Positions 5,929-53,201 of a DNA stretch of 64,000 nucleotides are shown here, one piece after another. The stretch lies in the IMG/VR virus record IMGVR_UViG_3300009068_000024, positions 32,001 to 96,000 of that record. The stretch is one strand, 5' to 3'. The notes under the pieces are model-generated. The model was not told the origin of the DNA, searched no databases, and saw nothing but the letters and a program-made list of their open reading frames with translations. The first letter of the stretch is position 1, and each line of letters opens with the position of its first letter. The position numbers were made by a program, and so were the translations under genes. Origin of the DNA: a virus.

Positions 5929-5955
5929 CCAAAACAACAACCAATTAGGAGCAAA

Positions 5956-9782: not shown

Positions 9783-9784
9783 GC

Positions 9785-9840: not shown

Positions 9841-9863
9841 CTAAATGAGAGTAAGGAACTCAA

Positions 9864-23958: not shown

Positions 23959-25116
23959 ATGGATATGATAATTAACCCAGAAGGAGCTTCAAGCAAGCAA
24001 GATCTTGCTCAGATGCTAGCTGTTCTGTTGTCAGATACAGTAACCTTCAAATTCCTAGCCCATGGCTATCACTGGAACGTACGTGGAATTAATTTTCCGC
24101 AGTTCCACGACAAATTCGCTGAGATTTACGAAGATGCAGACGATGCAATTGACCCATTTGCAGAAAATATTCGTAAGCTAGGATTTGACGCACCATTCTT
24201 GCTAACTGACTACGTATCTCTTACAGGAATTCAAGCAACTCCAGTTTCAGCCGATCCAGTTGATATGTCTGCTTCGCTTTACCAAGCAAATGCTTACATT
24301 ATTAGCGTAATCAGGGCTACTTTTGAGATTGCCAATGCTCTTAACGAGCAGGGTATTGCAAACTTCCTTGCAGAACGTGATGACCAGCACAACAAGTGGG
24401 CATGGCAGCTAGGCACAATCATTGGAGCTGATTCAACAGCTCAGGGCGACTTGGGAAAATCTGAGGCTGACCTACCTATAACAGCATCGCAAGATGTGGT
24501 AGATCAGCCTGAAACTCCTGTTTACGTTTCAGCTGCAAAGAATGATGATGCTTATCCAACTAAGAAAGTAACCTTCTCGAATGAAACCGAGAAGCAACTT
24601 TCAAGTTTGACTAAGGAACATAATGCCGGAAAAGATCTAGACGATCTTGTTTCAATTGCAACTTTGCGTGCAGTGTATAGACGAGGTGTTCGTGCTTTCA
24701 CTGCTAGTGGTAAGCCAGACACTGAACTCTCCGTTTGGGCAGAAGCTAGAGTAAAAGCATTCTTGTCTTTAGTAGAAAACAAACGTCCATCAAATGCGCG
24801 TTACACGCAGGATAACGATCTGCTACCTACTAGCCACCCTTGCAGCACAGTAGACACTAGTCAAGGCTTGACTGCATCTATTGCTGCTAGTAGAGATCTT
24901 GCTATCTCTATTAAATCTGAATTGGAATATAACGGTCCAGAAGACGCAATCTATTCTCTAGCTGAATATTCAGGATTGGGATATGAAGTAGTTCCAGCAC
25001 TGCGTGCTGTTTGGAAGAGGGCTATCGACGAGTTCGAGCCTCCTTTTGATAGAGCAGTCGGACTAGCTACTAAACTGTATCAAAGTAAAGACGCTGACCT
25101 TCTACCGACTAAATAG
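23959..25116 (+). CDS. dps: Dps/ferritin-like domain fused to phage head-associated domains
   Basis: AHGYHWNVRG..F...H..F...YE.....D..AE.IRKLG ferroxidase signature; C-terminal VYRRG...WAEARV...DNDLLP domain. Confidence 0.85.
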   Translation: MDMIINPEGASSKQDLAQMLAVLLSDTVTFKFLAHGYHWNVRGINFPQFHDKFAEIYEDADDAIDPFAENIRKLGFDAPFLLTDYVSLTGIQATPVSADPVDMSASLYQANAYIISVIRATFEIANALNEQGIANFLAERDDQHNKWAWQLGTIIGADSTAQGDLGKSEADLPITASQDVVDQPETPVYVSAAKNDDAYPTKKVTFSNETEKQLSSLTKEHNAGKDLDDLVSIATLRAVYRRGVRAFTASGKPDTELSVWAEARVKAFLSLVENKRPSNARYTQDNDLLPTSHPCSTVDTSQGLTASIAASRDLAISIKSELEYNGPEDAIYSLAEYSGLGYEVVPALRAVWKRAIDEFEPPFDRAVGLATKLYQSKDADLLPTK

Positions 25117-25133: not shown

Positions 25134-28100
25134 GTGAGTAAGAAAATTAATCTAATTAAGCAGTTTGATGACCAACTAGCAGTCGAGATGCCCGAAGATA
25201 TTTCGGTATCAGAACTAATATTCAACTTCACCCTAGAACAAAACGCTAGAGTGGAAGAGATTCGTCGTGTCACCGAACAGCAATTAGAAACTGTTGCGCT
25301 GAGATCACTCACTGCTTCTGCGACAGAAAATCTTACTACCGACGTACGTTATTTCAACGTTCTACGTGAACTTTCGCATTTCCTTAGTTTGGCTACAGAA
25401 GGTCCACGTCCAAACGGTGAAGACCGTAATACTGATCTACTCCCTGAATACCACCCAAGTTCTACGGCTGAGCTATCACTTGATCCAATCACGTTTCGTG
25501 CTCGCCGTGGGGCTTGGTACTCAGCCGACCCACGAATTGAAGACGAAGAAGTTCGCTCACTAGTTGCATCTGTCTATGGCTCCCACCCGATGGATGTACA
25601 GTTCCAACACGCTTATACACGTCTGCTAGCTCTTCCAGCTGGAAGTCTTCCAGTTGACATTATCGTCAGCCCGCTTACAGCCGGTGTTTGGGGTAAAGTA
25701 AAAAGCACATACAGCAAAGCAATGAATGTTTTTAAAGGAAAGAACTCTAGTTTCTGGCGTTCACTTCGTGCCAAGCGTCAGCTCCGTGACTCTAAGGGTC
25801 GCTGGATCGAGATGGGCGGCGGAGGCCAAGTAAACGTTCGTTTCCCTAGAGGAAATGTTAGAGCTGTCTCAGGTAAAGTTGCTGGCTACTCTACAAAGGG
25901 TGGATATATTGATTTTGAAGTTACAGACATCCCAGGGCTAAAGAATGGTCTGTATAGAGTTCCAGCCGCAGCCTTTGAAGGTGTTGCCGCTATTCTTCCT
26001 GCAGAAGCAGTTAAGGGTCTTCCAGTCGGAAATGCAATTCCTGATGACAACCAGATTATTGACATTAAAGATCTTGTTCCTGCAGAAATGCCTGAGGGCT
26101 GGGTAAAAAGTCCATACACTCCAACCAGCTCGGTTTTTGACAACAATGAACTTGATTCTGACTCAGTTTATGACTCTGCAGACGGCTACACAGCTACTGT
26201 AGTAAATAAGCCAGGGAAAGTTTCTGAAGGATTTGTAAACAAGGCTAAAGAAACATATGGCGATACTCTAGAAATTGTTGGCTCAGATGGTACTGAAAAC
26301 CTAGACATGAGTAAGCCACTAATCACAGTTTGGGCATCAAAGCGTGGTAAAGGAGCCAAGAGCCCTATTGGTTTTGCTCAGGACTGGGCTGGCGTACAAA
26401 AAATTGCTGGAGATGAAGACGATAGATTTGGTGACAAAGATAACCAAGATCTAACTCCAGAAGAAAAGCCTAAGGCTATGATTCCTGCTCAGCCTAGCCA
26501 AAGAAGGGAAAAGCCTGAAGACGAGGGAGAGCCTAATAAGCCGTATGACGATGGATCTAATCCAGACGCTTCTATGCCAGAAGGTTGGAACAAGATCGGC
26601 GATCACACTTACCTATCTAAGGATCGTAGATTCCGAGTAACTTATGGATTTGGCCAGTCTGATGTTGTTTTGGTGTATGACCAAAGAACTGGAAACGTTT
26701 CATTCCAACCAATTATGTCTGACGGTGTGTATACCCTAACCGAACGTGACGGCAATGGTGACTTCACTATGGACACTCAGATTCCATTCTTTAACTGGGA
26801 GCAGGTTGAAGACCAGGTCCATGCTATTAAATATCTAGAAGCTTTAGACCCGCTGTTTAACCCTAACATTGCCAACGTTCCGGACTACCAAAGAGAGATG
26901 TATTCTAAGCTAGACCCATCAGAACGTTTCCAGTACGATTACTTCGGCCCAGGTTCTGACATGATCAAGAAAGCTGATGCAATTATTGCACAGTTCCTGC
27001 AAGACTTCTATCCTGGAGACTTCACCTCACCAAAATTCAATGACAATGGTTTCTGGTCTGGAAAAGGAGCAAGGTCTGATACTTCTGCAAGAATTGTAGA
27101 TTCTGGAGATAACCTAAGAAGCGTTCAAATTATAGACAAACGCATAGGTCCTCTCAAGACACACCCTATCTACCCTGGAGAAGACGAGAATGAGGTTCTT
27201 ACACAGGCTCTTAGGGATTGGTTCGTACTTCCAGATAATCTACAAAGGTTCAGTTTGTATTCAGAGTTTAAAGACTTTGACATTACTAACGGTAGAAGTG
27301 CAGAAAAAACTCGAAAAGCTGTTGCAGAAATATACTACGAGATGCATGTTGCTTCCGAGAATGAACCGAACAAATTTAATGATGATACTTATTATGTATC
27401 TAGACTACATTCAGGGCTAAGAAAATATGTAGACTCTAAAGAAGCAAAAAATACAGATCTAGGTCCTTCTCAGAATAGAGCCAATGATGATTTCATTCCT
27501 AACGAGGGTCAGGTCCGTCGTCTAGTTGCAATCCTAAACTCTAGATACGTTCAAGATGAGCCAGAGCTTTGGGATAAAGTTAGAGCGATCAGAAAGAATC
27601 CTGAAGAGCACACTGTAAAAGAAGTAAATGATCTTGCAGCGTATATTGAAAAGAACTTCCGTGAACTGACCTCACCTGAAAAGGGTCTGGCTTCATGGCT
27701 ACAAAAGTCTTATCTCAAGTGGGCTCTAGATAACAAAAACTGGAGCAAAGAAGAAGCAGAAGAGATCAGAAAAAAGATCGATAACAATACTCTAACTAGA
27801 GCAGAATATGATCAGCTTCACGAGAGAGCTTATAATCTACCTTTTAAACCACTTCAGGCTCCAGAACCTACGCCAGAAGAAATAGCTGAATTAGAAAAAC
27901 TTAGAGCAGCCGAGAACACTGTAAACGGTAAGCCTGACTACTGGCTAGCAGATCAGCCAACTGAAAGCCCTAAATACCTTCGCAGTAATATTCCGCAAGA
28001 GGCTATGGGGCCTAGCGATGGGCAACTGGTTGGTATCGAAAGATTCTTAGAGGATAGAAATATTCCTGAAGAGTTAGTCCAAGAGTTTATGGACAACTAC

Positions 28101-31100
28101 AAGGACATGAATGCTCGTGAAATCCGTGAATGGTATTACACCTTTAAGGAGCACCCTTTTAAAGATCAGTACAAGCCTAAGAACAAGTATGGCCTAGTTG
28201 CTAGAGATTTTGACGGTGCATCTGACAGGATGCTTGCCAGCATTGAACGTATCTTTGACAAAGGATTAGCAAGCGATCGAGAGATAGCTGCAATTGTTAA
28301 GTCTGTTCCTAGAATGAACAAGTACGAGGTAAGCACTCAGATCATGTCTGAGCTTAAAGCTCGTGAAGATGCTTATGACAGCGTTCTAATCAAGAAGGCC
28401 GTTGAAGGCGGAAAGTCAATCAATGATCTAGATTTAGTAGATCTTATCGGCAGACCTAATGCACCTGAAGGCTGGGAAGATTTCAAGCCAAACGATGAAG
28501 CTCGTAAAGAGATTCTCGCTGATCAAAAAGACGAGGAAGAGGTCAAGCAGTTTGTTGACAAGCAAGCTCGTAAGAATGCTGCCCGCAGATCTCGATACGC
28601 TCTAGCTCGTCTAGCAGCTTTTATTGCTAACAATAGGGACCTAGTTAATGCTGATGGCAAGAGAATTATCGACGGAGCACTCGACGACATTAGAGACCTT
28701 AAGCGTATGCTTGACCTACGTAGAAAGTATGTAATCAAGCCTGCTAAGGTTATGGAACGTCTAGAGACCATTAAGAAGGGTCTAACTGATTCAGACAATG
28801 CTCACACTTATGGACGTCTTAAGAATAAGAAGCCTAAGACAGTAGACACTCTTGAAAGACTTGCAGCTGAAGTTGGATCTGTAATTGGAAGAGACGGTTA
28901 CCACAACGGTCCTTACGAAAACGACTATGACCCATCTCTAGAAGATGAAGTAGATCACAGCACATCGGCAGAAGTATTTGAGCCAAACCCTGCTGAATCT
29001 CCAGAGATTCCAGCTGTTGATGATCCAGTTCCTGGACTTATTGACTACTCTAACCACCCAAACAGACCTAGAGGTCCAAGAAGACTTAAGCCTAAGGCTT
29101 TCTGGGGTGTAGTAAGAGATTGGGTAGCCGGAGCTAAGACATTTGACGATGTTGAGAATGCCCTTAAAGATAAAGAACTGCATTTCATAGACTTCGAAAC
29201 TACTGGAGTTTTTGACCCGCTACAGCCACACGTTAAGAACGACCCTATCCAGATTGCTATCTACAAAGTTAAAAACGGAGAAATTCTTGACAAGTTTGTA
29301 GCTTACATGAACCCTGGATCTATCCCAAGTTCCTGGGCTATGACAACTCTGAGAGATGACAAAGGTAATCGAATTACTCCAGAATGGCTAGCAAGTCTTC
29401 CAAGTAAAAGCGAGGTTATAGCTAAGGCCGTAGAATTCCTAGGTCCAAATGCTGTACTAGCCGGACATAATATTGCTGATTTTGACTTAGAGGTTCTAAA
29501 CAGAACTCTTAGAGAAGCAGGGCTAAATGAATACTCTCCTGCCGGAATGGTTGATACTCTAGGTTTAGCTGACTACATTTATAACGTATTTAGTAAGATT
29601 AACCCTAGCGGTCCTTACAAGATGGACACCTTTGGACCATTCGGTTCAACTGCTATCGAAGCTCTAGCTAGATATGAAGGAATTCCTTTCCAAGAGTTGC
29701 ACGACTCTGCTAAGGATCTAGAAATCAACATTCAGCTTCTAGACAAGATGCTTCAGAGAGCTAAATCTGGGACTGACTTGATTAAAGACAATGTCTTTGA
29801 CCTCGACGCTTCAGATAAAGATTACGATGCAAAACTTCCTAAATACCTTGCAGGTAGAGAAGCCTTTATTGAACGTGCTGTTAAGTTCATAGCTGATATG
29901 GCAGTTAAAGAAGCACTTAAGGGCTCGGAACCTGATCCTAAGGATCTTGAAGAAGAAGTACGCAATGCTTTGAATGGAGGGGCGGCTGATGGAAACCCTC
30001 AGGGAGATGGTCCTCCTGCGATTATCCTTCCAGTAGTCGACGGTGAGCAACCTATCACCGAGAGCAACGTTATTCCAGACCCTATTAACAGAATCAAGCC
30101 TCCAAGCCCTAAGCAGCTAAAGAGCGTTGAAAGACGTCTTCTAGACACTAGAGGTCTAGTTTCAGCTGAAAGAGCAGCCGAGATCTGGGATCTTCTACCT
30201 AACGTCAACTCCAACGAGATCGGTGATCTAGTTCGAGAGATGGATGCAGCGGAACTTGACTATGCTATTGCAAACAACTTGCCAATAGATAATTTCCGTA
30301 TTCCACTTGACTACGACATGGAGAAACTTGAGGCTTACAAGGATAAGATGTATCCTGACCGCAACAAGAAAGATGGCCCTAGCCAACTACGTCAAGGTCT
30401 AAACTCACAGAGCGTTTTGTCTGAGATTTCATATGCTATGACTAACTTGCAAGATGCTTTAGGTTCTACTAGTAGTCCAGCAGAAAAGCGTGTTATCAAC
30501 TCTGCCATTAAAAAGCTAGAACAAGCTGCTCAAGACGAGATCAATAATCCATCTCAGAACAGAGAGCGTCCTGCAGATACCAAGGATAAGGCTGAACTGG
30601 CTACAGGTAGACACGACATTGGATTCTTGGATAAGGAATACACTGCACAGCAACAAGATGCTATTGAAGCCGGTATTCGCGGTTGGTCAGTTGTTATCAA
30701 GGCTCTAGCCGGTACAGGTAAGACTACCACTTTGATCGGTCTTGCAAAAGCAATACTTCACTACTTCCCTAAGAAGAGAATTCTTGCTATGGCTTTCAAC
30801 AAAGCTATTGCAGATGAAAACAGACTTAAGTTCCCTGGAAATACTGAAATTAGAACTATGGACTCTGTATCTTTCAAAGCTCCTGTAAATAGCAAACTTT
30901 CTAAGAAGTTTACTGCTATGAAGAAGCAGTCGGATGCAAAAAATAGACCGATCAATGGCTTTTTGGACATAGCTGATTACTTCAAGATTCCAAACGAAGT
31001 AGAGCTAAGTAATGGACAAAGAATTTCTAAGTTCTTAGCAGTAAAAATTACACTTAAGGGTCTAAACAACTGGACTATTAGTGCAGATGACATGATCGAA

Positions 31101-34100
31101 AGAAAACACTTCGACGATGCAATTGGAGAAAGAATAGGCGGTCCTGAGGCTTATACCCCATTCTTCCTAGAGCTAGCTCAGAAAATATGGAAAGAAAAAC
31201 TAGAGCCGCACGATGACAGCGTTCGTCAGATTCCTGTAACTTTCAACGATATGATGAAGAACTTCGCTCTTAGCCACCCTAATCTAAAAGAAGTTAACTC
31301 TAAGGGAGAAAGCGCCCACGGTCTTGGTGCAATCCCAGACATTATTCTGATTGATGAGGCTCAGGACGTTAACGGAGTATTCTTTAGACTTATGGATGAG
31401 CAAGAGACTCTACACAACAATGGCATACAACTTGTTGTTGTTGGAGATCCTCACCAATCTATCTATCAGTTCCGTGGAGCCGTCAACAGCCTAAATATGT
31501 TTAGAAGAATGGTAACCCTACCTCTAACCATGATGTTCCGTGCCGGACAAGATGTTGCTGATTTTGCTAACCAGGTTTTGGAGATTAAGGACGAGGATGA
31601 CGAACGTCTAGTCGGAAATCCAAATAAGACTTCAAGTCTTGCAACTCCTGGAAGTATGACAGATGCAGACATGATTCTTACCACAACCAACGCTGATGCT
31701 CTACTAGAAATTATGACTATGGTTGGTAGAGGTCAACGTGCTGGTGTTATTAGAGAATTTAAAGCTGAAATGAATAGTTTCTTGGCTACAGCTAAGTGGC
31801 TATTCTTCGGTGCTAACCCTAAGTACCGCCCATCAAATGCGCATGAGGACTTAGATTCCTACGACAGCTGGAAGCAAATGCTTGAACTTCACCAAGAAGA
31901 TTCTGATCCAGCAGTAGGAAGATTGCTAGGCATTATGGAGTTGACTCAAGCTCGCCTAGAGGAGCAAGAAAGAGACAGCGATGGTAAGGCAGTATTTGCT
32001 GAACTAAAGCGAACAGTCGACGGTGCAAGAATCATTGGTATTCAAGGATTCAAAAAGCCGTTGGATGGCGACTGGGGCGATGAAGGTGATCTTGGTAACT
32101 TTATAAGTTATAAGATTGAAAATGGAGTTATCCGTCTATACAATACTGGAGACGCTAAGCCTTGGACACCTGAGCTTAAGAATCCTAATAATGGAACTAA
32201 GAATAACTCTGACACCTTATCTTCAATGGGCTACACATGGGATACAGGTAAGACTTGGGACTGGACCACTCCTGTTCAAGGAAATGGATCTGAGCAACTA
32301 AGCGCTCTTGTAGACGCTCTAAGTGGTGCAGATGTCGACAGCGTAGTTCTAACTGCTCACCGAGCCAAGGGACTAGAAGCTAAACAAGTTAAACTTTCAG
32401 GAACATGGTTCAAGCCTAACCCACAAAAAGATGCTGACGCTATCGAGAAGGGCAATATGCCTAGATCTCTTACTACAGAAGCATTGAACCTTATGTATGT
32501 TGCTGCAACTAGAACTATGGATGAATTAGATCCTGGAATGTTGGATTGGCTAGATGGTAAGACAGAAGAATTCAAGTCAAAGCGTAAGGATTACCTACGC
32601 CAGCTAGAAGCTAGGTCTGATAAGAGCCCTGATCAACCTACTTCAAAGAATGTTGAAAGCTCAGGACCTGAAATTGTAGAAGTAGATCCTAATACTCTAC
32701 AAAAGGGTGACACTGTAGTTACTGCTAAGGGAAACAAGAGAATTAAGATGATAAGTCGTCACGATTCCGATGAAGTTAGTGTATTCTTTGAAGCTATTGA
32801 TGGCGGTGGCGGTATGACATATCGTAACGGTGGAATGGCTAAAAAGGTTATTGGAGGACCGTCACAGAACCGTGAAGGAGCTACTAACCCTGACACCAAG
32901 TATGACTACACTGCTGACTGGAACACCGAATACCTTGGTGGACCTAACGGCGACTCATATAAGCACACTTGGAGCTCTCCAGATGGTAAGTATGAAGCAG
33001 ATATCACTAACGACTCTATTGCAGTTCGTAAGAATGGTAAAACTATATTCCAAGGAGATAACGGTCTGGATGCTAAGTCAGACCCAGAGAACGTCAGAGA
33101 ATCTAGCTTAGATATAGTTGCAAAGGCTATTGAATCAGATTCAGATATTAGCCCTAATAGATCCACTCCTGAGCAACCAGTAATGTCTCAGGAAGAGATT
33201 AATGCAGCCTACGACGAAGCTATCCAAGCCGAGTACGACTACCAGATGTCTCTTGAACCTATTTCTCGTGATCCTCGGTTCCCTGGCGGAGAGCGTGGTC
33301 TTAAGGAGCTTACAGAGGCAGTTCACGCTGCTGAAAGAATGGCAGCCGAAATCGAGACCCCTGTTCTTGACCCTATCCCTAACGGATTAGACCCAGAAGA
33401 GTACGTGGCTCAACTCAGATCAGCTTTGCCAAATAAAAAAATAGAACTTTATACTGACGAAAATGGTAATAAGTTTGTAAAGGTCTCTGAAGTAGCAAAT
33501 AGATCTGGAATCTTTGGAGCATCTCAAGCAATTTTTGGTATGAAAGACCTAGAAGACAACGGTCCTTCTCAAAACCGCGAAAATAACAAACCTATAAAGA
33601 GCAATAAAGATGCTGTAGATCAGGTTATGGCTCAGATTACCGAAGCTATGGATAAGGGAATTATTCCTTGGAAGAAGCCTTGGACTGGCGGCGGATCTTG
33701 GCTACCAACATCTGGTGCTACCGGTAAGAACTACAAGGGTGGAAACCTAATCATCCTGCAAGTTCTAGGTCAGTTTAGAGGCTATGAAGGAACACGCTGG
33801 TATACAAAGAACGCTATTGCTAAGCTTGGTGGCTACGTCGACGAGAACGATGGCGTGCTTATCACCAAGGTTGTGAAGAGTAAGTACACTGTAAAGCCAG
33901 ACGAGACCAAGACTATCATTGACCCAAAGACTGGTGATCAAAAGCCGGATGATGGTTCTAGAACCAAGACTAGACTCGACATTGATGTTGTCTATAACGA
34001 AGATGTGGTTAAGGGTATTACTATTCCACCACTTCCTAGAAAAGACCCACCTCCTATGCACGAAGTAGAAGATATTATTCTAGATTCTTACACAAATGGA

Positions 34101-34823
34101 CCTAATATCAAATACAGCCCTGGAGACTCGGCTTTCTGGTCACCTGATACTGACACAATCAGCTTGCCTCTGAGAGAACAGTTCAATAGCACTGAAGAGC
34201 ACCTAGATACTTTGTTCCATGAACTTACCCACAGTACTGGTGCCTCGGACAGACTAGACCGTAAGGATCTTCTAGAAAACTACGGCAAGCACAAGGATGT
34301 TCGTGCTCGTGAAGAACTTATTGCAGAAATTGGAGCAGCTATTCTAGCTTCTATGTTTGGGATCAACACTAGCATCGAAAACGTAGCTGCTTATGTTCAG
34401 TCTTGGAAGAGATTCCTAGAAACAGAGCCGAACGCTCTATTCGAGGCTGCTTCTATGGCAAGCAAGGCGGTTGATTACATCCTAGCCGGCTACTATGAAG
34501 ACAATCCAGATGAAGAGTATGATCCAAATAGCCAACCTGGAGCTACTTCTATGCCAATCGAACCGATTACTGGTGAAGATGGTTCTTCAGGAGGTCTTGG
34601 AGGCGGTGTCAACTATCGAATCGAAGGTAACCGAATCTTCCTGATGGGCGATACTATGGCTGCTAAGGATCTGATCAAGAGCATCTCTCTAGTTCCTAAA
34701 GATAAGAAGATCCCATTCTCATTCTTCTGGGACAGAAAAGCGAACAACTGGAGTATTAGCCTAGGTGATCCTGAGGATAGAGTAAATATTCTTAACCAAC
34801 TTAAAGCACTCCTAGGTGGTTAA
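25134..34823 (+). CDS. 3229-aa polyvalent protein: DEDDh exonuclease, UvrD-like SF1 helicase, ArdC-like ssDNA-binding domain plus zincin metallopeptidase
   Basis: FIDFETTG (about 29183); ALAGTGKTT, IDEAQD, VGDPHQSIYQFRGA, TAHRAKGLE, YVAATR (30700-32510); PWKKPW...YKGGN; HELTH...EELIAE (about 34218). Confidence 0.85.
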   Translation: MSKKINLIKQFDDQLAVEMPEDISVSELIFNFTLEQNARVEEIRRVTEQQLETVALRSLTASATENLTTDVRYFNVLRELSHFLSLATEGPRPNGEDRNTDLLPEYHPSSTAELSLDPITFRARRGAWYSADPRIEDEEVRSLVASVYGSHPMDVQFQHAYTRLLALPAGSLPVDIIVSPLTAGVWGKVKSTYSKAMNVFKGKNSSFWRSLRAKRQLRDSKGRWIEMGGGGQVNVRFPRGNVRAVSGKVAGYSTKGGYIDFEVTDIPGLKNGLYRVPAAAFEGVAAILPAEAVKGLPVGNAIPDDNQIIDIKDLVPAEMPEGWVKSPYTPTSSVFDNNELDSDSVYDSADGYTATVVNKPGKVSEGFVNKAKETYGDTLEIVGSDGTENLDMSKPLITVWASKRGKGAKSPIGFAQDWAGVQKIAGDEDDRFGDKDNQDLTPEEKPKAMIPAQPSQRREKPEDEGEPNKPYDDGSNPDASMPEGWNKIGDHTYLSKDRRFRVTYGFGQSDVVLVYDQRTGNVSFQPIMSDGVYTLTERDGNGDFTMDTQIPFFNWEQVEDQVHAIKYLEALDPLFNPNIANVPDYQREMYSKLDPSERFQYDYFGPGSDMIKKADAIIAQFLQDFYPGDFTSPKFNDNGFWSGKGARSDTSARIVDSGDNLRSVQIIDKRIGPLKTHPIYPGEDENEVLTQALRDWFVLPDNLQRFSLYSEFKDFDITNGRSAEKTRKAVAEIYYEMHVASENEPNKFNDDTYYVSRLHSGLRKYVDSKEAKNTDLGPSQNRANDDFIPNEGQVRRLVAILNSRYVQDEPELWDKVRAIRKNPEEHTVKEVNDLAAYIEKNFRELTSPEKGLASWLQKSYLKWALDNKNWSKEEAEEIRKKIDNNTLTRAEYDQLHERAYNLPFKPLQAPEPTPEEIAELEKLRAAENTVNGKPDYWLADQPTESPKYLRSNIPQEAMGPSDGQLVGIERFLEDRNIPEELVQEFMDNYKDMNAREIREWYYTFKEHPFKDQYKPKNKYGLVARDFDGASDRMLASIERIFDKGLASDREIAAIVKSVPRMNKYEVSTQIMSELKAREDAYDSVLIKKAVEGGKSINDLDLVDLIGRPNAPEGWEDFKPNDEARKEILADQKDEEEVKQFVDKQARKNAARRSRYALARLAAFIANNRDLVNADGKRIIDGALDDIRDLKRMLDLRRKYVIKPAKVMERLETIKKGLTDSDNAHTYGRLKNKKPKTVDTLERLAAEVGSVIGRDGYHNGPYENDYDPSLEDEVDHSTSAEVFEPNPAESPEIPAVDDPVPGLIDYSNHPNRPRGPRRLKPKAFWGVVRDWVAGAKTFDDVENALKDKELHFIDFETTGVFDPLQPHVKNDPIQIAIYKVKNGEILDKFVAYMNPGSIPSSWAMTTLRDDKGNRITPEWLASLPSKSEVIAKAVEFLGPNAVLAGHNIADFDLEVLNRTLREAGLNEYSPAGMVDTLGLADYIYNVFSKINPSGPYKMDTFGPFGSTAIEALARYEGIPFQELHDSAKDLEINIQLLDKMLQRAKSGTDLIKDNVFDLDASDKDYDAKLPKYLAGREAFIERAVKFIADMAVKEALKGSEPDPKDLEEEVRNALNGGAADGNPQGDGPPAIILPVVDGEQPITESNVIPDPINRIKPPSPKQLKSVERRLLDTRGLVSAERAAEIWDLLPNVNSNEIGDLVREMDAAELDYAIANNLPIDNFRIPLDYDMEKLEAYKDKMYPDRNKKDGPSQLRQGLNSQSVLSEISYAMTNLQDALGSTSSPAEKRVINSAIKKLEQAAQDEINNPSQNRERPADTKDKAELATGRHDIGFLDKEYTAQQQDAIEAGIRGWSVVIKALAGTGKTTTLIGLAKAILHYFPKKRILAMAFNKAIADENRLKFPGNTEIRTMDSVSFKAPVNSKLSKKFTAMKKQSDAKNRPINGFLDIADYFKIPNEVELSNGQRISKFLAVKITLKGLNNWTISADDMIERKHFDDAIGERIGGPEAYTPFFLELAQKIWKEKLEPHDDSVRQIPVTFNDMMKNFALSHPNLKEVNSKGESAHGLGAIPDIILIDEAQDVNGVFFRLMDEQETLHNNGIQLVVVGDPHQSIYQFRGAVNSLNMFRRMVTLPLTMMFRAGQDVADFANQVLEIKDEDDERLVGNPNKTSSLATPGSMTDADMILTTTNADALLEIMTMVGRGQRAGVIREFKAEMNSFLATAKWLFFGANPKYRPSNAHEDLDSYDSWKQMLELHQEDSDPAVGRLLGIMELTQARLEEQERDSDGKAVFAELKRTVDGARIIGIQGFKKPLDGDWGDEGDLGNFISYKIENGVIRLYNTGDAKPWTPELKNPNNGTKNNSDTLSSMGYTWDTGKTWDWTTPVQGNGSEQLSALVDALSGADVDSVVLTAHRAKGLEAKQVKLSGTWFKPNPQKDADAIEKGNMPRSLTTEALNLMYVAATRTMDELDPGMLDWLDGKTEEFKSKRKDYLRQLEARSDKSPDQPTSKNVESSGPEIVEVDPNTLQKGDTVVTAKGNKRIKMISRHDSDEVSVFFEAIDGGGGMTYRNGGMAKKVIGGPSQNREGATNPDTKYDYTADWNTEYLGGPNGDSYKHTWSSPDGKYEADITNDSIAVRKNGKTIFQGDNGLDAKSDPENVRESSLDIVAKAIESDSDISPNRSTPEQPVMSQEEINAAYDEAIQAEYDYQMSLEPISRDPRFPGGERGLKELTEAVHAAERMAAEIETPVLDPIPNGLDPEEYVAQLRSALPNKKIELYTDENGNKFVKVSEVANRSGIFGASQAIFGMKDLEDNGPSQNRENNKPIKSNKDAVDQVMAQITEAMDKGIIPWKKPWTGGGSWLPTSGATGKNYKGGNLIILQVLGQFRGYEGTRWYTKNAIAKLGGYVDENDGVLITKVVKSKYTVKPDETKTIIDPKTGDQKPDDGSRTKTRLDIDVVYNEDVVKGITIPPLPRKDPPPMHEVEDIILDSYTNGPNIKYSPGDSAFWSPDTDTISLPLREQFNSTEEHLDTLFHELTHSTGASDRLDRKDLLENYGKHKDVRAREELIAEIGAAILASMFGINTSIENVAAYVQSWKRFLETEPNALFEAASMASKAVDYILAGYYEDNPDEEYDPNSQPGATSMPIEPITGEDGSSGGLGGGVNYRIEGNRIFLMGDTMAAKDLIKSISLVPKDKKIPFSFFWDRKANNWSISLGDPEDRVNILNQLKALLGG

Positions 34824-34891
34824 TTAAGTCTTTATTCAGATACTTTGGTATACTATTTACAGACTTATTAATAACTTAGAGGAGTATTTAC

Positions 34892-35044
34892 ATGGAAAAT
34901 TATTTGAACCCTGATCACTATACTCCTGAAGATGAAGAGTATTGGACTGCTATCTCTTTCCCAAACCCCGATCCAGATTTCCTATATGATAGTGGTGAAG
35001 AGGATGTAGCAGAGCCTACTCCTAAAAACACTCCGTCAGAATAA
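34892..35044 (+). CDS. small acidic protein
   Basis: RBS gaggag, 50 codons, read by hand. Confidence 0.55.
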   Translation: MENYLNPDHYTPEDEEYWTAISFPNPDPDFLYDSGEEDVAEPTPKNTPSE

Positions 35045-35061
35045 CTACGTAGGATATATAA

Positions 35062-35265
35062 ATGGACGAAAATAAAAAGTCTAAGGCCGAGCCTATGCTT
35101 ACCGTAGAGTCTTATAGAAATGACGAGCACATCATTAAAGAAGTGCCGTACTCATCTCTTAGCATCGAGCAATTAGTCAATCTAGCTCTAGGTGGATCTA
35201 AAGCTGCCAATGAAGAACTGCAGCGTTTGGTTGGAGTAGACATCCTTAAGGGTGGCGAAGAGTAG
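35062..35265 (+). CDS. hypothetical protein
   Basis: ORF whose stop overlaps the start of the giant gene. Confidence 0.65.
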   Translation: MDENKKSKAEPMLTVESYRNDEHIIKEVPYSSLSIEQLVNLALGGSKAANEELQRLVGVDILKGGEE

Positions 35266-44200: not shown

Positions 44201-47200
44201 GTCTAACCCTAGCCAAAACCGTGAGGGCGATCAAAGAAATATTACTCAAGATACCGATCAAGTTTCAATTGCAGCTATAGCAGATGCTTTAGCAAATGGC
44301 GATATTAATAATGTAAATTCTAATGAAGACCCGTCTGACATATTTGCATCAAAAACCAATTTCGGAGTAAGCATGTTGCTCAAGCAGGTAACAGCTATGA
44401 GACTTCTCAACTATATGCCAGATGCCAAGTTTGACGATCTACTCAAAGCTTCTATAGAAGTAGATACACATCCGTTGTTTAGACAAGGTGGCGGTCTAGC
44501 TATCTATTACATGGACTTTAATTCTGGACAAGCATCATATTCACCACTTCCAGGCCAAAGAAATCCTGTGTGGATATACAATGCCCTCAATGCAGATATG
44601 TCAGATATAAAAGAAGGAACAGAACTTCTAGTTACCGATGCTAATGGTAGCGATAGTCTTTCAAATGTATCAATAATTACTGTAAATAAAGAGCTTTTAA
44701 ATTCCGTTCTTAAAACAATGGGAGATACCAATTCAAACAGTATCGTGAGATTTATAAACGATGAGCTCTTCCTTAGAGTGCACTCAAGTTCTAGTCAAGA
44801 AGATGTTGACGATATAAAGAAGATAATGATATCTCACTTGATTCACAGCTGGGCAATATCTTCTAATGATAGAAGCCTAAAGTCTCATGCTTTGCAAAGT
44901 TTAGCTAGAGAAATATTTGCTATGGACTCTAATTCAACAGCTGGCTGGAATTTTACTTCAAATCTTGCTGATTCTGATCTTGATATGTATAGGGACAGAG
45001 GGTATATACCTTATGAAGTAAAAGATTTAGTAGATTTCAATAATTATCTAAAGGGATTTATTGATCAAGAAATTAACGATCACAGGACCGTTTATGCTCA
45101 GTTCTTACATGCAATGTACAATGCTACCCAGGATCTACTAAAGGATCAGGGAATAGATGGTTTCGTTCTATACAGAGGAACTACTTCCAAAGAACTTACT
45201 GAAACCTCTCAAAGTCTAGGATCTACTGGAATATTTAGATCTAATGTTAAGCAGAGACCGATGTCTTCATGGTCAACTGATATCTATCAGGCTGGTAGCT
45301 TTGCATCTAGAGCTTCTGGCAAAGATACAATAGTTATGGCTACAGTAATTCCGGCTGACAAAATTATTTCATTTTCCGGATCTGGATTTGGATCTTACGA
45401 CGAGCGTGAGGTTGTTGTTTTAGGTGGAGAGATTAGAGAAGCTTTTGCTATTAGTCATGGATACCCTGGAGTTGTAGATCAAAGTCTTCAAAATCTCAAG
45501 ACTGAGGTTGTGGATCAACTTGCAAATAGTAGAAAGGTTCTAGATACTGACCGAGCAAGTGGCCAGCAGGTAGTTCAGGAACAAAGCAAGCCGTCTCAAA
45601 ACAGAGAAAACACTATAAACATTGATGACAATGATGGAAACTCAGACTGGATTAAGACAGTAGGCTGGGACCTACCTATCAACGTTGATAATTTCTTAAA
45701 GATGTTTAATGACAGGGAGCATCTTTCAAACTTTATGTCTAAGCCTACTGCTGAAGGTATGCCTGAAGAAATGCTACGCAACCTATGGCCGGCTGCTGAC
45801 AAGTATTTTGACAAGATAGAGTCTGCTCCTAAAGAAGAAGAGCCTAAATACCTACCAGAGCCTTTTGATCCAAGAAACCCTCAAATCGATCTAGATGAGT
45901 ATTACAACTACGACTACACCAGAATGCCTGATGGAACTCCGTTTAACTCTGAAGATCAGCAGCAGATGGATGCGGTAGAGAGAAAATTAAAAAATATTCT
46001 TAAAGGTAGCGATGGCTATGTCAATCCATCTGCTCTAAAAAATACAAAGAACTTTAGAAGAACTATTTACCAGCAGATAATTGCTAAACCTAATGAAAAC
46101 TCTTCTACTACAAGAGAGAGCATTCTTAAGCAAATAGAGTTTAGCGATAAACCTGCTGTTGAGTACTACGATGAAACTAGCGGAGTTAACTACATTAGAT
46201 ATGTAGACACATTCACAGATAAATATGGAAGAAAATACTATCTATCAACTAATATTGATAAGAGTTCTGGTCGTCAAACTGTAATTGCTTACGATGCACA
46301 AAACTATGAAAACATGGCTCTTCCGGAAGACTACGTAAGAAATGATCAGCCTGTATCTGGAATTAGTGACGTTGGTGTGCTTAGAAGTTCTGTCTATGAA
46401 GATCCATCTAAATCTGAAATTCAAAGTGCGTTAGTCAGCTATAACTACCAAAGAAGAGGTCTAGCAACAGCTATGGTGGCTGCTCTAGAGAAGAGAATAG
46501 GTATGCCAGTAGTTCACTCGGAGCACCTGTCTACCATGGGATTTGCTTTCTCTAACAGCATCGACCCTGGCAAGCCTGAGCTACACAATAACGAGAAATC
46601 TATAAAACTACAGGAAGACAATGCTCCTTCTCAGAATCGTGAAGGATTCTTCAAGAGAAACAAAGCCAAGAAGGAACCTTTTGACCCTACAGATCCTACC
46701 GTTGATCTAGAAAAGTATTACAACTATGACTACACTAAGCTACCTGATGGCACCCCATTTAGTGTCTATCAGCAGCAGCAGATGGATATTCTTAAAGATG
46801 CAATTGACAACGAAACCGATAACTTTGAAAGAAAACTACGTATCGATGAGAGAAGACGCATCTATCAGGGATATACTGCTAAGCCAAACTTAAAGTCCGG
46901 CACTAATCTTGAAAGTATTGAAAACCAGGTGGGACTTCTAGATGAAAATACTTCTAGAATGAGCTATAGCGGTGCCGGTAAGCCTTACGCAGATCTTTCA
47001 CCAGAATACAAGCAGAGCACTCAGTATATTGATGAGTTCACTGATAAATATGGTAGACAGTATTGGGTAGTTACCAAGGTAGTAAACGGCCTCGGTATGT
47101 CAAACGTAAAGATCTACGATAAGAGTAAAAACTCAGTGCAGGATCTTCAAGATAATTCAGAGGATAGAACTCCTGTATCTATGCTAGATGTCTTTAATAA

Positions 47201-50200
47201 CAAAATTAGTATGGTTTACACCTCAGATAGATACCTAAGAAGAGGATTAGCTACTGCGGCCCTTTACCTAGCAAGAAAGCGTTCTGGAAAAGAAGTTCAG
47301 CATTCAGAAATGCTAACTAATTTTGGTAGAGCATTCTCCCTTTCAGTTGACCCTAACCCTGATCTTCACAGAAACAGTGAGTCAAAAGATGCCCTATCTA
47401 ACAACCAGCCTTCTCAGAACCGTGAAAGAGAATACCTGCCAGAACCTTTTGACCCTAGTGATCGTAAAATTGATATGGATATTATCTATAACTACGATTA
47501 CACTAAGCTACCTGATGGCACTCCATTCAACGATAAGCAACAAAAAGCAATGGATCACGAGAATAAAATTCTTGAAGAAGCTATAGCTTCCGGAGATGAA
47601 TCAAAAATACGTGCAGCTAAAATTTCTAGAAGACATACATATAATACATTTATAACTGTAGCTAACCCAGACTCCAAAACAAACACTGAAACTATAGCTG
47701 ATCAGATTACTTTAGGTAAATCTAAACCTAAAAAGTTCACCGGGTTTGTCCGTTACACAGATAATTTTACAGATAAATACGGTAGAAAATATGTGATGTT
47801 TACTGACATAAGAACCGATGATAAGGGAGATAATTCTGCAATTGTAACAGTGCATGATATGAAGAGTATGTTCCTTGAGAAAATTTTTGTTCCTGAGGGT
47901 ATGGAAAATGTTGATCAATTTGGAGGAAAAAGTCTCCACTCAGCTGCGTTAAAAGTTGTCGATGATAATAGAAAAGATCCAGATGCTGCTGCTTATATTG
48001 GTATGGTACTTACTGATGATGCGTATAGACGCCGCGGTCTTGCAACAGCAATGCTGTACTTAGCTCGTAAGCACTACAGTAAACCTGTTAACCACTCAAG
48101 CACTCTTACCATGTACGGTAAAGCTTTCTCTAACTCTGTGGATGCTGGAAAACCAGACGTGCACGATTCTTTAGAATCTAAGCAGCTACAGATTGATCTT
48201 CTTAAGGAGAAGGGTCTTCCTGTAGAAGAGTCTGAACTTGATGGCGATGAAATTGATTACGGGCCTAGCCAAAATAGAGAAGGTACTTCAGAACCATCTA
48301 TTCTTAATGAATATCGTGAAGTAATTCCTTTAAATAATTCCTATAGAGATAAGAATGACCCTAATTTAGACATTACTGAATGGACTGGCGAAGGTGTCAA
48401 AATATATGGAATAGGTAATGGCGGTAATCCACTGGGCTATGTAAAAACTGAAAAGCTTGCTACAATGAAAGGCAATCTTGCAGATATGGAGAGCAGTACA
48501 TCTTCTATAGCTCGGGATCTTGAAGACGGTACTGGCTATTTAGAGCCAGTACTAGTTTGGTACAACCCTCTTACTGGAAAAGCTTTTATTGCAGAGGGAA
48601 ATCACAGGGTTGAAGCTGCACGTATAGCTGGAAGAGAATATGTGCCTGTTGTAGTTGGCGTTAGCACTGTAAAGTTTAAAAATCCAACTAAAATGGAGAG
48701 AGCCGGGGGGGTTGGAGATGCATTTTTAAATAAGGATGGAAGTTTAGATAACTTTGAAAATGTTAAAGATGGATCTCTTATAAATCCATACCACTTATTT
48801 AATGATGAAGATCTTTTATATCCTAAAACTAATTTAGATTCAAGCAATGTTTCTGGACTTACAGATGTACTCAAAATACAATCAGATCTTTTAGATGAAC
48901 TTATGGCTGAAAAGAAAGAACCCGGACCTAATGATATTGTTTATTGGCACGATCCTGACAGTTTTAATGCCAATAGCTCGATTGGGCATATGGGACATGC
49001 TTCAGAAAAATTAAAAAGTATTACTGCTAAAAACATAAGTGAAAACATGCTGTCTTCCGCTAAAGATATGCTAGATGCGGTTCACTACGCCATAACACTT
49101 AGTGAAGCTGTACGTAATAGAATTGGTTCGATAACCTCAGATACCTCGGAAATAGCTAAAAAAGCTATGCAAACTAGAGTAGATAGTTTAAATAGAGATT
49201 CTATTGTACTAATAATAGATGACTCTTATGATTCTCCATATGAAGGATTACGTTTAGAAACTTTAGGGGAGATATTGGATAATGTGGATCCTCACGAGGA
49301 GGGGGCTTACGGAGATAAATATGATGATCAAAGTATTGATTACAAAGCTCTTTTAAATGATTATTACGACGATTGGGATAGAAAAACATTATTTTTTGAT
49401 AATCCAAAAGATATGGAAGCACTAAAAGAAAAGGTAGCTTCAATTCTTGTTTCACAGTGGGCAGAAACATCTAACGGTAATGATATGGTTTCTCACGCTC
49501 TTCAAATGGCTGCAACTGAAGTATTTAAAATGCCTAATGGATCGTGGGCGGAGTGGAGATTCCCTAAAGGTCAGTATGGGGATCAAATTAAAGAAAATGC
49601 GGAATATCATTATGGAATATACGGAACAGTACTTAAAGATTTCTTAAAAACTATGTACGACCTTACTCAGGATCGGTTTAAAAACTATGGAATAAAGTAT
49701 TTAACCCTTTACAGAGGTACTGGAGTAGATGAAGAAGCTTTAAAAATGAACATTGATGTTGAACGTTATGGTGTAGGAGATATTGAAGTATTGCAAAGAC
49801 CTATGTCATCATGGTCTTGGCTTAATGGCAGTGCTTTCCAGTTTGCTACTAGTAGAATAAAACATAGAGCAGGAATGTTTATGGGAGCTATAATTCCCGT
49901 TGATCAGGTTCTTTCTATTCCTGGAACTGGTTTTGGTTGTTTTGAAGAAGCTGAAGTAGTTCTACTAGCAGGAAAAAATAGACTAGTAAGAGCTGTAATT
50001 AGTGATGATTCTCATAAAGTACTTGACCAAAAAACTTTTATTGCTGAAAATGTGGATAAAATACTTTCTTACTTATCAGATGAACTTCCTAAAGATAAAA
50101 ATGCTTTTTACAATTTAATAGAGTTCAACAGCAGTTCTTTTAATGATTCTAAGCCTTCTCAAAACCGTGAAAACAAGTCGGTTGACATTGACAGTAGCAC

Positions 50201-53200
50201 AGAAAACTCTGACTGGATTAAACCTTTTAGATGGGATCTAACTACTAACGTAAAGAGCTTCCTAAATAAATTTAAGACCAAAAAAGATGTCAAAGACTTT
50301 ATGGAACTTCCAGCAGCCGAGGCTATTCCAGAAGATCTAAAGAAAGAGCTAGATGCCAAGGAATCAAGTCTTCCAGAAGATTCTTCAGAATCTGGTGAAA
50401 AAGATACACCGATTTCTCTACAAGAATTGCACAGAACATTTATTACTTCTATATTAATGGGAGCGGGGGATCAGAGAACTAGGCCTATCCCTGGGATTGG
50501 ACCTGAATGGCTACCGGCTAGCGTTAATGAGGATAAGTTAACTAACCTTGAAAGACTTTCCATACATATGTGGTATATGGATGTTATGACTAATGGAGGA
50601 GCTTCTAATGCAACTCTCACCTCTAAAGCAGCTGATTATCTGACTAAATATGTTATCCCTCTTATTGATAGACATAAAGAAGAGTTTATGCTTCTCCCTA
50701 ACCATGACATTTATATCAACAAAGACAATAATGCCGCTATTAAAGTTCTTAGATTTATAACTAATCCAACTAAGAAAAATGGAAAAACTAACGTAAATAC
50801 TGACTATAGGGCAGCCTCTGCTGCTGGAGTAGCTAAATTTGCAAATAAACTTTCAAAAGTTTTAGCTAAAACAAGATTTAAATTCCCTGTCAAAGAACTT
50901 CAGGTAATAATTACTCACCCTAATATTGAAGATTTCTTTAAGAGAATAGATAATGGTGATGGAACTCATAGGCAAAGATTAGCTGGAATAGCTTTCCCTA
51001 ACCTCTTTATTCATGGTCAGATTTTAAACGAAGACGATAAAGCTCCTAGTCGTAAACTTACCGAAAACCCTAGACCGGATGCTACCGATTTAGAGGCCAC
51101 CATTGCTCACGAAATAGGTCATATTCTCCACCAAAAAGGTATCATCAATACAGCTGATCCAGCTACAAAAGACACTATTCGTAGATTTATGAATGAATAC
51201 CCTCTAACCGATTATGCAAATACAGACGAAGACGAGTATTTAGCTGAGGCATATGCTGGAATGATGTTGTCTGAAGATGGCATTGGCCGATACAAAGAAG
51301 TTGCTGATTGGATTAATAACCAGATCGACACTGTTGATGAAAGAAAAGAAAAAGCTGCTATAGATCTTCTTAAGACTATGCTAGATAAACTTGGTATTCC
51401 AGGTAGCAGCAAGCCTAGCCAAAATAGGGAAGGTTCTAGAGAACAGATTATTGCGTCTGCTGCAAAAGACATTGCTTCTAGCGGAATAGGTTTTGTGCCT
51501 GGAAAAGTTAAAAATGATATAAGCATAGCAACTGACGGTCCTGTAATAAATATCGAAGGATCTCCTAAAAAAGATGCAGTAGCTCCATCTGATCAGGCTA
51601 CCGCTATTAAAAATGAAATAATCGATCTAGGACATATGATTCTAGATGATGCTAGAGCTATTTCAGATGAGCAAGCTAGATCTGAAGGTCTTATCCCTGA
51701 AGGATTTACTGCTGAAGAATATAGAAAAAAACTAAAGAATGATGCTAGAACTGCAGAACTAAATATACTTATAGCAGAAAGTAAGTTTAAGGCTATGTCT
51801 CAGGATCTTATGAGAAATGCTTTTAATAGACTTTCTTACGAAGATAAAGAAGAGGTTTTCCAAAGCTTCAAAAAAGAAAATTCTAAAAATAGCATATTGT
51901 CAGGTAAAGATAAAAATACTTTTGATGCAGAAGAAACTTTTAATATGCTTCTAGTCGAGTATGGTGATGATCTTTCTCATAAGCTTGCTTACGATTACAG
52001 TACTCGATATCCAGAGTTTACTTTTGATACCGGTAAAACTGTACTACAAAGAACTAGAAACAGGAGCGGAAAACTAACTAAAGAAGTAGAAGAAAGAAAG
52101 ACTTTAGTAGACGTTACTTGGGCACATGAGGGACCTGACACTATTCTAAGTATGCTTACCAAGTGGGCAATTCAAACAGGCAAAATTGACATGTCAGATT
52201 TTGCTCAAAAAGCAGCTGAGATAAAAGAGCTAAGAGATCAGCTCAGAACTTCTCCAAAAGCAGAAGATTTTGTAGAAAAGTATCACTCTATAATTGGTAA
52301 AAATATTAAATCTCAGATGGAAAAAGCGGGAGTTGAATTTGACTCGGTGCCTGCACATGAGTTTTTTAATCAGTATAAGGACTACAAATATGTTAATAGT
52401 AATGAAAAATTCCAGGATATTAGAATAGATAGAAATAAGAACCTTATTAAAAATCTAGAAGAAACTCTTAGTTTTATTCCTAAAGATATTATTCTAGCTG
52501 GAATGGAATATCTAGCTAATACTGGTGGAAAACTTGGGGTTCAAATTTCCGACGCACGTGCGCAATTTAAACAGCACTGGAAAAATAAAAATTTAATAAA
52601 TTCATTGAGATGGAAAAAAGAGCAGGGAGATGGAGGATTCTTCCGTGGGAGATCAACTGACGACTACCTACACGAAGTTTGGCATTTCTTCCAGATGATC
52701 AACCATGATATTGCAGCTTTAGAGCACGCTTTCTCTTATGACAGAATTAAAGCATCTGACAACACTAATATCATTCCGTCAATGGAACTTTATGGAAATT
52801 GGGTAGAAGAATCCTTCTCCGGGGCAAAGGTGGCAGATCCTTATACTGTGAAGGTATATCCTCGTTCAACCAGTAAGTTTACTACCTTCAGTCCGAACAA
52901 CCACAGTGCCGAAGTTATAACTACTACAATGCAGGATCTATTTACTTCTCCTGGTAGCTTCTCTACTCCTAAGGGAGTTACGGTTAAAACTGGAAAAGGC
53001 AAAAATACTACGTTGTTTAGCGATGCTCATATGGATATAGCTACTGGCATTTGGTATACTGATGCCACCATGACAACTAAAATTGACCCTAAGCTGATCA
53101 CTGGAATTGAAGGACTAGATCCTTCGAATGACACTGACTGGGATCTAAAAGCTTTTGGAATCGGTCTACTGATGTCGCTATTGAACTGGGAGAATAAGTA

Positions 53201-53201: not shown

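Follow-up and report, generated by a model that had tools for sequence, protein, structure and literature searches.

Clade-specific junction peptides in two giant head-module proteins of an uncultured lake phage, candidate cleavage sites of presumed cargo polyproteins

Two giant proteins segmented by a short peptide

We analyzed a 64,000-nucleotide stretch of viral DNA (referred to here as the window), which covers bases 32001 to 96000 of IMG/VR record IMGVR_UViG_3300009068_000024 and derives from an uncultured lake phage; the virus record itself is complete (137,503 bp, with direct terminal repeats). Between the portal gene and the genes for the head protease and capsid proteins, the gene order of the window places two very long genes on the plus strand, one encoding a 3229-aa (amino acid) protein (giant protein A, 25134..34823) and the other a 5978-aa protein (giant protein B, 35265..53201). 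Both proteins are segmented by a short peptide, P-S-Q-x-R, usually in the form PSQNRE. Six copies separate seven modules of 459, 324, 971, 57, 770, 235, and 413 aa in A, and ten copies separate 11 modules of 256, 362, 682, 1687, 461, 345, 261, 285, 630, 420, and 589 aa in B. We refer to the modules as A1 to A7 and B1 to B11 and to the motif-bearing positions between them as joints.

All joints are encoded on the plus strand. In A, they read PSQRRE between A1 and A2 (26493..26510), PSQNRA between A2 and A3 (27465..27482), PSQLRQ between A3 and A4 (30378..30395), and PSQNRE between A4 and A5 (30549..30566), A5 and A6 (32859..32876), and A6 and A7 (33564..33581). The first two joints of B carry PSQSRE (B1 to B2, 36015..36032) and PSQFRI (B2 to B3, 37101..37118), followed by PSQNRE at B3 to B4 (39147..39164), B4 to B5 (44208..44225), B5 to B6 (45591..45608), B6 to B7 (46626..46643), B7 to B8 (47409..47426), B8 to B9 (48264..48281), B9 to B10 (50154..50171), and B10 to B11 (51414..51431). 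The exact hexapeptide therefore accounts for 11 of the 16 copies. An earlier reading of the window made without database searches, referred to here as the sequence-only reading, had reported 16 copies of PSQxR, and all 16 were recovered at the same coordinates.

The motif is confined to these two proteins, as translation of the window in six frames yields no further copy of P-S-Q-x-R, and a search of the window and of the whole genome located neither PSQxR nor relaxed variants of it anywhere other than in A and B. Back-translated PSQNRE matches the 137,503-bp genome 11 times on the forward strand and not at all on the reverse strand, and a reversed control pattern has no match. From composition, 0.048 copies of the motif would be expected against the 16 observed. 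Among 500 shuffles of A and B, the motif never exceeded one copy, and the commonest 4-mer reached at most 6 copies, compared to 12 in the real sequence. The 11 PSQNRE copies are encoded by 10 distinct DNA strings, with serine as TCT, TCA, or AGC and arginine as AGA, AGG, CGT, or CGC. Because the codons vary between copies and include both serine codon families, selection acts on the peptide and not on the DNA, as the sequence-only reading had also concluded.

The joints are hydrophobic-poor, poorly conserved, low-confidence linkers between modules. Within 12 residues to each side of the 16 copies, the hydrophobic fraction is 0.185 versus a background of 0.29, and a value this low did not arise in 20,000 random draws of 16 positions. 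These flanks are 0.41 identical to those of two related genomes that carry a different joint peptide, PSPKEE (described below), versus 0.54 within modules. We built two AlphaFold2 models from alignments of relatives, one of A1 and one of B7 with its flanks. The A1 model has a mean predicted local distance difference test score (pLDDT) of 74.6, and its tail (residues 436 to 459), which holds the first motif copy, scores below 50. The B7 model has a mean pLDDT of 78.5 with a core of 80 to 94, and the motifs of its two flanking joints (B6 to B7 and B7 to B8) lie in the sole two stretches below 50 (residues 1 to 25 and 274 to 284 of the model). Thus, pLDDT is below 50 at all three motif sites that the models cover. 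Sequence matches place the module borders similarly: the helicase Pfam match of A5 begins 30 aa downstream of its joint, and residue 7 of the solved ArdC structure (PDB 6i89) aligns to residue 2825 of A, 8 residues past the final Glu of the A6 to A7 motif. The view that the copies sit in linkers and bracket whole domains holds for the linker placement and for the delimitation of modules; the bracketing itself was checked in part only, and several of the domain identities on which it drew are weak.

Several modules match known conflict domains. We regard as firm, by their family matches, the assignments of a helicase, an ArdC unit, and two exonucleases. Module A5 (30567..32876, plus strand) matches a UvrD/Rep-type superfamily 1 helicase (Pfam PF00580, E = 4.8e-18), with further helicase matches in the PDB. 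Module A7 (33582..34820, plus strand) is a complete ArdC-like anti-restriction unit, in which an N-terminal, ssDNA-binding ArdC-N domain (PF08401, E = 3.6e-17) is followed by a C-terminal MPTase-PolyVal zincin (PF18818, E = 1.2e-29) with the HExxH metallopeptidase motif in the form HELTH; the module aligns to residues 7 to 284 of 6i89 with an E value of 6.4e-28. Module B2 (36033..37118, plus strand) matches the DnaQ/RNase_T-type exonucleases (Pfam RNase_T), and a paralogous domain lies within A3 at aa 1351 to 1536. Module A1 (25134..26510, plus strand), modeled as a helical domain with small beta-barrels, is the sole giant-protein module common to all clades that we examined, with 29 to 41% identity across clades.

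Other identities are weaker. Modules B6, B7, and B8 (45609..48281, plus strand) are paralogous to one another and share an invariant RRG[LI]ATA; their identity as GNAT-like modules is suggested by Pfam matches below threshold (17 to 17.6 bits versus a cutoff of 20.7), by the AlphaFold2 model, and by VIA matches with many GNAT chains among the top hits (Z scores of 5 to 6.4, where values below 8 are middling), and no Foldseek match at E ≤ 0.001 was found for the model of the GNAT-like module. The HExxH motif recurs in A7, B3, B10, and B11. Module B10 (50172-51431) may be a zincin, judging from its HExxH and weak M78/M48 matches, and B11 (51432..53198, plus strand), the C-terminal module of B, is a candidate zincin with HExxH...EH. 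A ParB-like module is suggested by one weak PHROG match, and an ART module is a language-model lead only. PDB sequence searches of B gave nothing useful, as was also the case for the 1514-aa head-protease fusion protein encoded downstream of B, and PHROG and NCBIfam scans of the unassigned modules gave weak matches only. The longest module, B4 (39165-44225; 1687 aa), contains no joint and belongs to no family that we could find, with a sub-threshold match to the SAVED domain (E = 5.9e-4, 19.4 bits versus a cutoff of 33). Overall, each chain combines several catalytic or DNA-binding conflict domains (RNase_T, UvrD, ArdcN, and MPTase-PolyVal in A; RNase_T, GNAT-like, and HExxH in B). This domain content and the position of the genes agree with the previous description of A and B as polyvalent conflict proteins in a head operon.

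Related phages and the rewriting of the joints

A search with the ArdC module of A7 returned nine related viral contigs. We examined two of these records with PSPKEE joints (G001 and G002) further, together with a complete genome with PSQNRE joints (G003). Five of the nine contigs, at 93 to 97% identity, retain PSQNRE. Two contigs at 86% and 71% identity have no PSQxR at all, and the aligned A proteins carry PSPKEE at six of six and five of six sites, respectively, the sixth site falling in a deletion. For example, PSPKEE stands at the A1 to A2 joint in loci L014 and L016, and at the A3 to A4 joint it is present in L014 and deleted in L016. The same holds for B, which has 13 PSPKEE copies in G001 (6850 aa) and 13 PSPK-type copies in G002 (6148 aa). 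When B is aligned, PSPKEE stands at 9 of the 10 window sites in G001, PSPK[EQK]E stands at 9 of the 10 in G002, and the rest fall in deletions, so that over the 16 window sites the totals are 15 in G001 (PSPKEE) and 14 in G002 (PSPK[EQK]E). Neither G001 nor G002 has any PSQxR in its giants, and the giants of the window and of G003 contain no PSPKEE. G003 retains the sites with slight variants (PAQNKE, PNQNRE, and PNQFRI).

The modules themselves also differ between these relatives. Inserted modules found only in G001 are bordered by PSPKEE, the motif of that clade. A relic joint, SAPKEE, lies within module B6 of the window (45822..45839, plus strand) and lines up with a GPSPKEE joint that is still live in G002. 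Where A ends in the window (...KALLGG and a stop codon), A of G002 runs on with GGGGG-PSPKQE and about 400 further residues. This extra C-terminal module (residues 3130 to 3542 of the G002 homolog; loci L026 to L028) has an HEYGH sequence after its PSPKQE joint. The exchange of modules together with clade-specific borders bears out the "plug-and-play" arrangement that the sequence-only reading had proposed. The same reading had named absence of the motif from close homologs as evidence against its idea of a functional site: PSQNRE is indeed absent from two close relatives, but PSPKEE is substituted at the same sites, which strengthens the functional reading. A concerted change at about 20 sites points to a single sequence-specific reader, which is most likely an endopeptidase.

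These comparisons also bear on two explanations that would assign the peptide no role in the protein. A DNA- or RNA-level role, such as internal ribosome or recombination sites, was rejected on the varied codons and on the GAA-GAA coding of PSPKEE, which gives no AAGGAGG-like string; in addition, no in-frame start codon follows the motif. Alternatively, the motif could be a passive, functionless leftover of linker duplication. The GNAT-like trio is paralogous, and its linkers could have been copied along with the modules. However, most joints link unrelated modules with unrelated flanks, the peptide is kept while its codons are scrambled, and all sites are rewritten together in the sister clades. 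Codon scrambling and concerted rewriting lead us to exclude a functionless remnant, which we consider extremely improbable.

We extended the comparison to eighty portal-anchored loci and four further records. Other clades carry other repeated peptides at their joints: the two giants of G005 together contain 19 copies of GF[AS]Q (in full, G-F-[AS]-Q-x-[PAS]-G) and the single 4801-aa giant of G006 contains 14; [DE]-E-D-L-G is present in 13 copies in G007, [IL]-D-[RK]-M-A in 5 copies in locus L051, and S-E-R-K-P-G-K-A-T-E in 4 copies in G008. PIVD, PIIK, VEES, and LVDA, with 3 to 4 copies each, are weaker candidates. The copies of these peptides have varied codons and unrelated flanks, and the motif classes track clades in a portal tree built from 33 rows. 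The sequence D-R-P precedes one joint in the PSQ, PSPK, and GFAQ clades alike, and the joint site is therefore older than the codes. At least three copies of one of 11 tested patterns were found in 17 of 32 portal-anchored loci; the patterns were defined post hoc from the same loci, and this survey covered the first 1.4 to 3.1 thousand residues of each giant.

The nearest named relatives of the phage are Actinomycetia phage DSL-LC01, assembled from a lake metagenome, and large Microbacterium phages such as Pumpernickel, with DNA identity of just 63 to 69% across the terminase and portal genes. Phage isolations on "Ca. Nanopelagicales" or Microbacteriaceae hosts have been reported (PMC10202952). 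Phage DSL-LC01 encodes a 3289-aa giant at the same place, in which we found no PSQxR and no clear repeated motif. In Pumpernickel, gp82 (2235 aa; positions 3384 to 10091 of locus L204) follows the portal, and a 1534-aa protein occupies the place of the protease fusion. The only repeated word in gp82 is V-K-R, which occurs six times in unrelated contexts and is too short for a code.

From these patterns we advance a tentative generalization, which may well prove too broad: large freshwater-actinobacterial phages might use clade-specific junction peptides of 4 to 10 residues, each read by a dedicated, co-evolving endopeptidase, and genome-wide rewriting of the kind that separates PSQNRE from PSPKEE could act as a compatibility barrier. 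If so, a captured foreign module would have to acquire the local code before it could be released, and premature processing of the cargo by foreign or host proteases would be prevented. Tailed phages would then process polyproteins much as eukaryotic viruses and MARTX toxins do, with the difference that the site would be programmable.

Proposed loading and cleavage, and candidate readers

A second motif, Q-x-R-D-x-x-G-[RK]-[FW], is constant across the clades. Six-frame translation of the 137.5-kb genome gives exactly four copies, all on the plus strand: as QLRDSKGRW in A1 (25779..25805), as QFRDKYGRW at 33 aa into B (35361..35387), and as QSRDYGGKF (54991..55017) and QPRDYTGRF (57958..57984) in the protease-fusion protein. 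In seven other genomes, every first giant carries the motif, and so does every protease protein, with one copy in the protease proteins of G005 and G006 and two copies in the others. The motif is found at the N terminus of the second giant in four of the six genomes that have one and is missing there in G005 and G008. Among 27 homologs of A1 the motif is invariant; in the A1 model, it falls partly in a low-confidence stretch (residues 180 to 215), with its last residues at the start of a better-scored part. Being constant and present once per giant polypeptide, it fits whole-chain loading through one signal, and it is a candidate capsid-loading signal.

We consider it somewhat probable, on balance, that A and B are head cargo polyproteins in which the joints would act as sequence-specific cleavage sites. 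We infer packaging into the virion from the gene position and from the shared QxRDxxG[RK][FW], and it is likewise from sequence that we infer cleavage at the joints. In this scheme, the head cargo would consist of chains of self-contained modules (the ArdC unit, the UvrD-type helicase, two DnaQ-type exonucleases, three GNAT-like modules, zincins, and ART-like and ParB-like modules). Loading would proceed via the conserved N-terminal module A1 and the invariant QxRDxxG[RK][FW], such that one signal carries many effectors. Each disordered linker would offer a single genome-wide junction peptide, here P-S-Q-N-R-E, to a single sequence-specific factor that co-evolves with the peptide and is most likely an endopeptidase. 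Cutting of the chains into 7 and 11 proteins would take place in the procapsid or once they have been injected. As P-S-x-x-x-E is common to the two sister codes, our guess is that the scissile bond would follow the final Glu.

A binding role fits most of the same data as a cutting role, which is one of the points that weigh against joint cleavage by a co-evolving reader; others concern the candidate readers discussed below and the 15 of 32 surveyed loci without at least three copies of any of the 11 tested patterns. Under a binding role, the joints would remain uncut and the peptide would dock each module to a partner such as the inside of the capsid, the scaffold, or a further cargo protein. 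Docking-type signals are exemplified by encapsulin cargo-loading peptides and by the T4 capsid-targeting sequence. A uniform short peptide per module in exposed linkers would suit multivalent binding equally well, and no co-varying protease was found. However, the conserved virion partners stay constant despite the change of code, with 85 to 97% identity for the portal and 78 to 87% for the 682-aa capsid-like protein (58590-60638), and this is also true of the protease protein. The one virion protein that does track the sister codes is a 383-aa capsid-like protein (60710-61861), which is 78 to 86% identical within a sister code class and 42 to 43% between classes (G001 and G002). This association is broken by G006, a genome of the GFAQ class in which the window-type 383-aa protein is present at 78% identity (locus L132 of the G006 record). 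We attribute the association to mosaicism and rejected the 383-aa protein as a reader or partner. A loading role, moreover, already has a truly conserved motif in QxRDxxG[RK][FW], and docking leaves unexplained that the end of an open reading frame in one phage is a joint in another. Overall, we consider docking unlikely.

If the joints are cut, the neighboring gene offers a candidate enzyme. The 1514-aa protein (53902..58446, plus strand), in which the junction motif is absent, contains a Peptidase_S78 domain at approximately aa 779 to 912 (nucleotides 56236 to 56637), with His813 and Ser861 invariant in 12 homologs. The Pfam match (aa 813 to 911) falls just below the cutoff (E = 5.7e-4, 20.5 bits versus 21), homolog P0015 scores 26.4 bits, and PHROG matches are to head maturation proteases; the full protein has 1815 metagenomic homologs at E ≤ 1e-5. 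This HK97-type prohead protease could cut the joints inside the procapsid. It is encoded beside B within the head operon; QxRDxxG[RK][FW] is common to the giants and the protease protein, which could therefore be co-loaded; and both sister codes end in Glu, analogous to the sites of the prohead proteases gp21 and gp245. The domain does not track the code, however: in this domain the window is 92% identical to G001, whose code differs, and 88% identical to G003, whose code is the same, and the domain is approximately 70 to 95% conserved across clades with unrelated codes. The changes that are consistent with code class are conservative (L/M, K/R, and L/I). In eight genomes, the codes are absent from the portal, protease-fusion, and capsid-like proteins, barring chance-like single 4-mers (GFSQ, once in the G006 portal and once in a 296-aa open reading frame of G005), whereas the motifs of gp21 and gp245 occur in many head proteins. 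On the identity matrix and the alignment we rejected the S78 protease as a co-evolving reader; it is still a possible cutter, if an improbable one. The sequence-only reading had named this protease, encoded from 53902, as a candidate for cutting the motif, which fits poorly given that it does not co-vary with the code and that the motif is missing from other head proteins. A complex prediction for the protease region (aa 771 to 1140, with a 12-row alignment) and a 35-aa joint peptide scored 0.00 (mark, 0.32) and counts neither way. The stretch that follows the S78 domain, aa 916 to 1140 (56647-57321), is the most conserved of the head module, with 91 to 97% identity in relatives and near invariance across clades; it has no Pfam family, and its PHROGs labels are "head maturation protease" or "virion structural protein".

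The zincins within the giants are possible joint-cutting enzymes. B11 is 86% identical to its counterpart in G003 and 35% and 34% identical to those in G001 and G002, and B3 shows 84%, 49%, and 37%, respectively, a sharp divergence between the sister codes; B11 of G001 and B11 of G002 are just 43% alike. As for A, its C-terminal zincin forms part of an ArdC unit that is complete, a point against this zincin as the cutting enzyme. No peptidase module is common to all of the code-bearing clades: the giants of G008 are free of HExxH, G001 bears a code without the B10 zincin, and tblastn with the ArdC-MPTase unit against the retrieved portions of G007 and G008 gave no match. On these three observations we rejected a universal zincin reader. 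Module A1 has neither a protease signature nor a protease fold in its model, which has no PDB match at E ≤ 0.001 and weak, local BFVD matches, and we rejected it as a cis-acting protease. A Pfam scan of all 18 modules (E ≤ 0.1) detected no Peptidase_C80 or other cysteine peptidase. In sum, no phage-encoded reader that co-varies with the code was found among the candidates tested.

This negative result would be expected if a host endopeptidase read the code after injection and freed the effectors in the cytoplasm, with the code shifting as the host changes. In staphylococcal phage 80alpha, the host protease Prp reportedly cuts head proteins, the cleavage site being a mimic of ribosomal protein L27. 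The sister clades, however, with portal identities of 85 to 89%, would need hosts with protease specificities differing at three of six positions, and we know of no actinobacterial protease of such specificity. Processing by the host is, in our view, quite unlikely.

Relation to known systems and the surrounding head module

If the joints are cut, a single loading signal would deliver approximately 18 separate enzymes at infection, with anti-restriction, nuclease, helicase, acetyltransferase, and peptidase activities, which would explain how polyvalent proteins of 3,000 to 7,000 residues can work. Polyvalent proteins were defined by Iyer, Burroughs, Anand, de Souza, and Aravind in 2017 (PMC5512222), who predicted processing by zincin-like or assemblin-like peptidases, and joint cleavage would turn this prediction into a testable site-and-enzyme problem. 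The giants described here share with their proteins the many conflict domains per polypeptide, the late or virion gene position, and the combination of ArdC-N with MPTase-PolyVal. The accessible text of that study describes neither a conserved junction peptide nor its lineage-specific rewriting. In our data, by contrast, the MPTase belongs to a complete ArdC unit and there is no peptidase common to all clades.

Short cleavage consensus sequences are known from phage heads. T4 gp21, which is accompanied by a capsid-targeting sequence, and phiKZ gp175 are prohead proteases that mature internal or ejection proteins. In SPN3US, gp245 cuts nine head proteins, including ejection proteins, at A-x-E and mostly removes N-terminal propeptides (PMC10052503). 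As far as these accounts go, the likeness lies in a short consensus in head-packaged, injected proteins that is cut by a phage protease, with an N-terminal targeting element that loads the cargo. Their motifs are described as spanning three residues and occurring in many head proteins, whereas here a six-residue motif is restricted to two giants and 16 intermodule joints. The motif also changes between sister clades while the head protease is nearly constant. Here, too, the head module encodes a prohead protease, and a consensus common to the cargo and other head proteins was not found in the window or in seven relatives.

Giant proteins with exchangeable effectors are known from bacteria. The MARTX toxins of Vibrio, which reach approximately 5200 aa, carry a swappable effector array that is freed by proteolysis after delivery (PMC2900308, PMC6315884). 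They are bacterial toxins directed against eukaryotic cells, with an internal cysteine protease activated by inositol hexakisphosphate, whereas our Pfam scans detected no such domain. Delivery here would instead be via the phage capsid and tail.

In polyproteins of eukaryotic viruses, as for picornavirus 3C, coronavirus Mpro, and pp220/pp62 of African swine fever virus, a single protease recognizes a short consensus sequence at each junction, and the enzyme co-evolves with its sites. The short consensus at each junction is shared with the phage giants, but the products here are accessory effectors and not replication or core structural proteins. Searches of the literature, with subscription journals and supplements outside their reach, found no published phage junction code. 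The apparent novelty is thus a multisite, fast-evolving junction code on otherwise known processed polyvalent or ejection proteins.

The clade codes represent natural specificity swaps, such as PSQNRE versus PSPKEE at 85 to 89% portal identity. A short, orthogonal, and programmable pair of protease and site would be a potential tool. The joints, which mark module borders, provide a simple means of dividing unannotated giant phage proteins, which number in the thousands, into functional units.

The remaining genes of the head module surround the giants. The terminase large subunit (17252-18649) and the portal (22136-23941) are encoded upstream, followed between the portal and A by a ferritin-like/DUF5824 protein (23959-25116), in which a ferritin-like domain (PF00210, E = 8e-15) is fused to DUF5824. 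An iron-storage fold on the portal side of A is an unusual placement and is reminiscent of the ferritin-like cargo of encapsulins. Downstream of the protease fusion, the 682-aa protein matches "major head protein". The 383-aa protein, with tail genes downstream of it, resembles a second HK97/P22-type capsid protein in language-model scores of 0.90 to 0.92 (a lead only) and has a Thr-rich Ig-like insert. Small open frames of 54, 67, 125, and 69 aa occupy the gaps between A and B (34880-35262) and between B and the protease gene (53198-53815). These frames are kept in relatives at 46 to 91% identity, the 69-aa frame lacking a match in G001.

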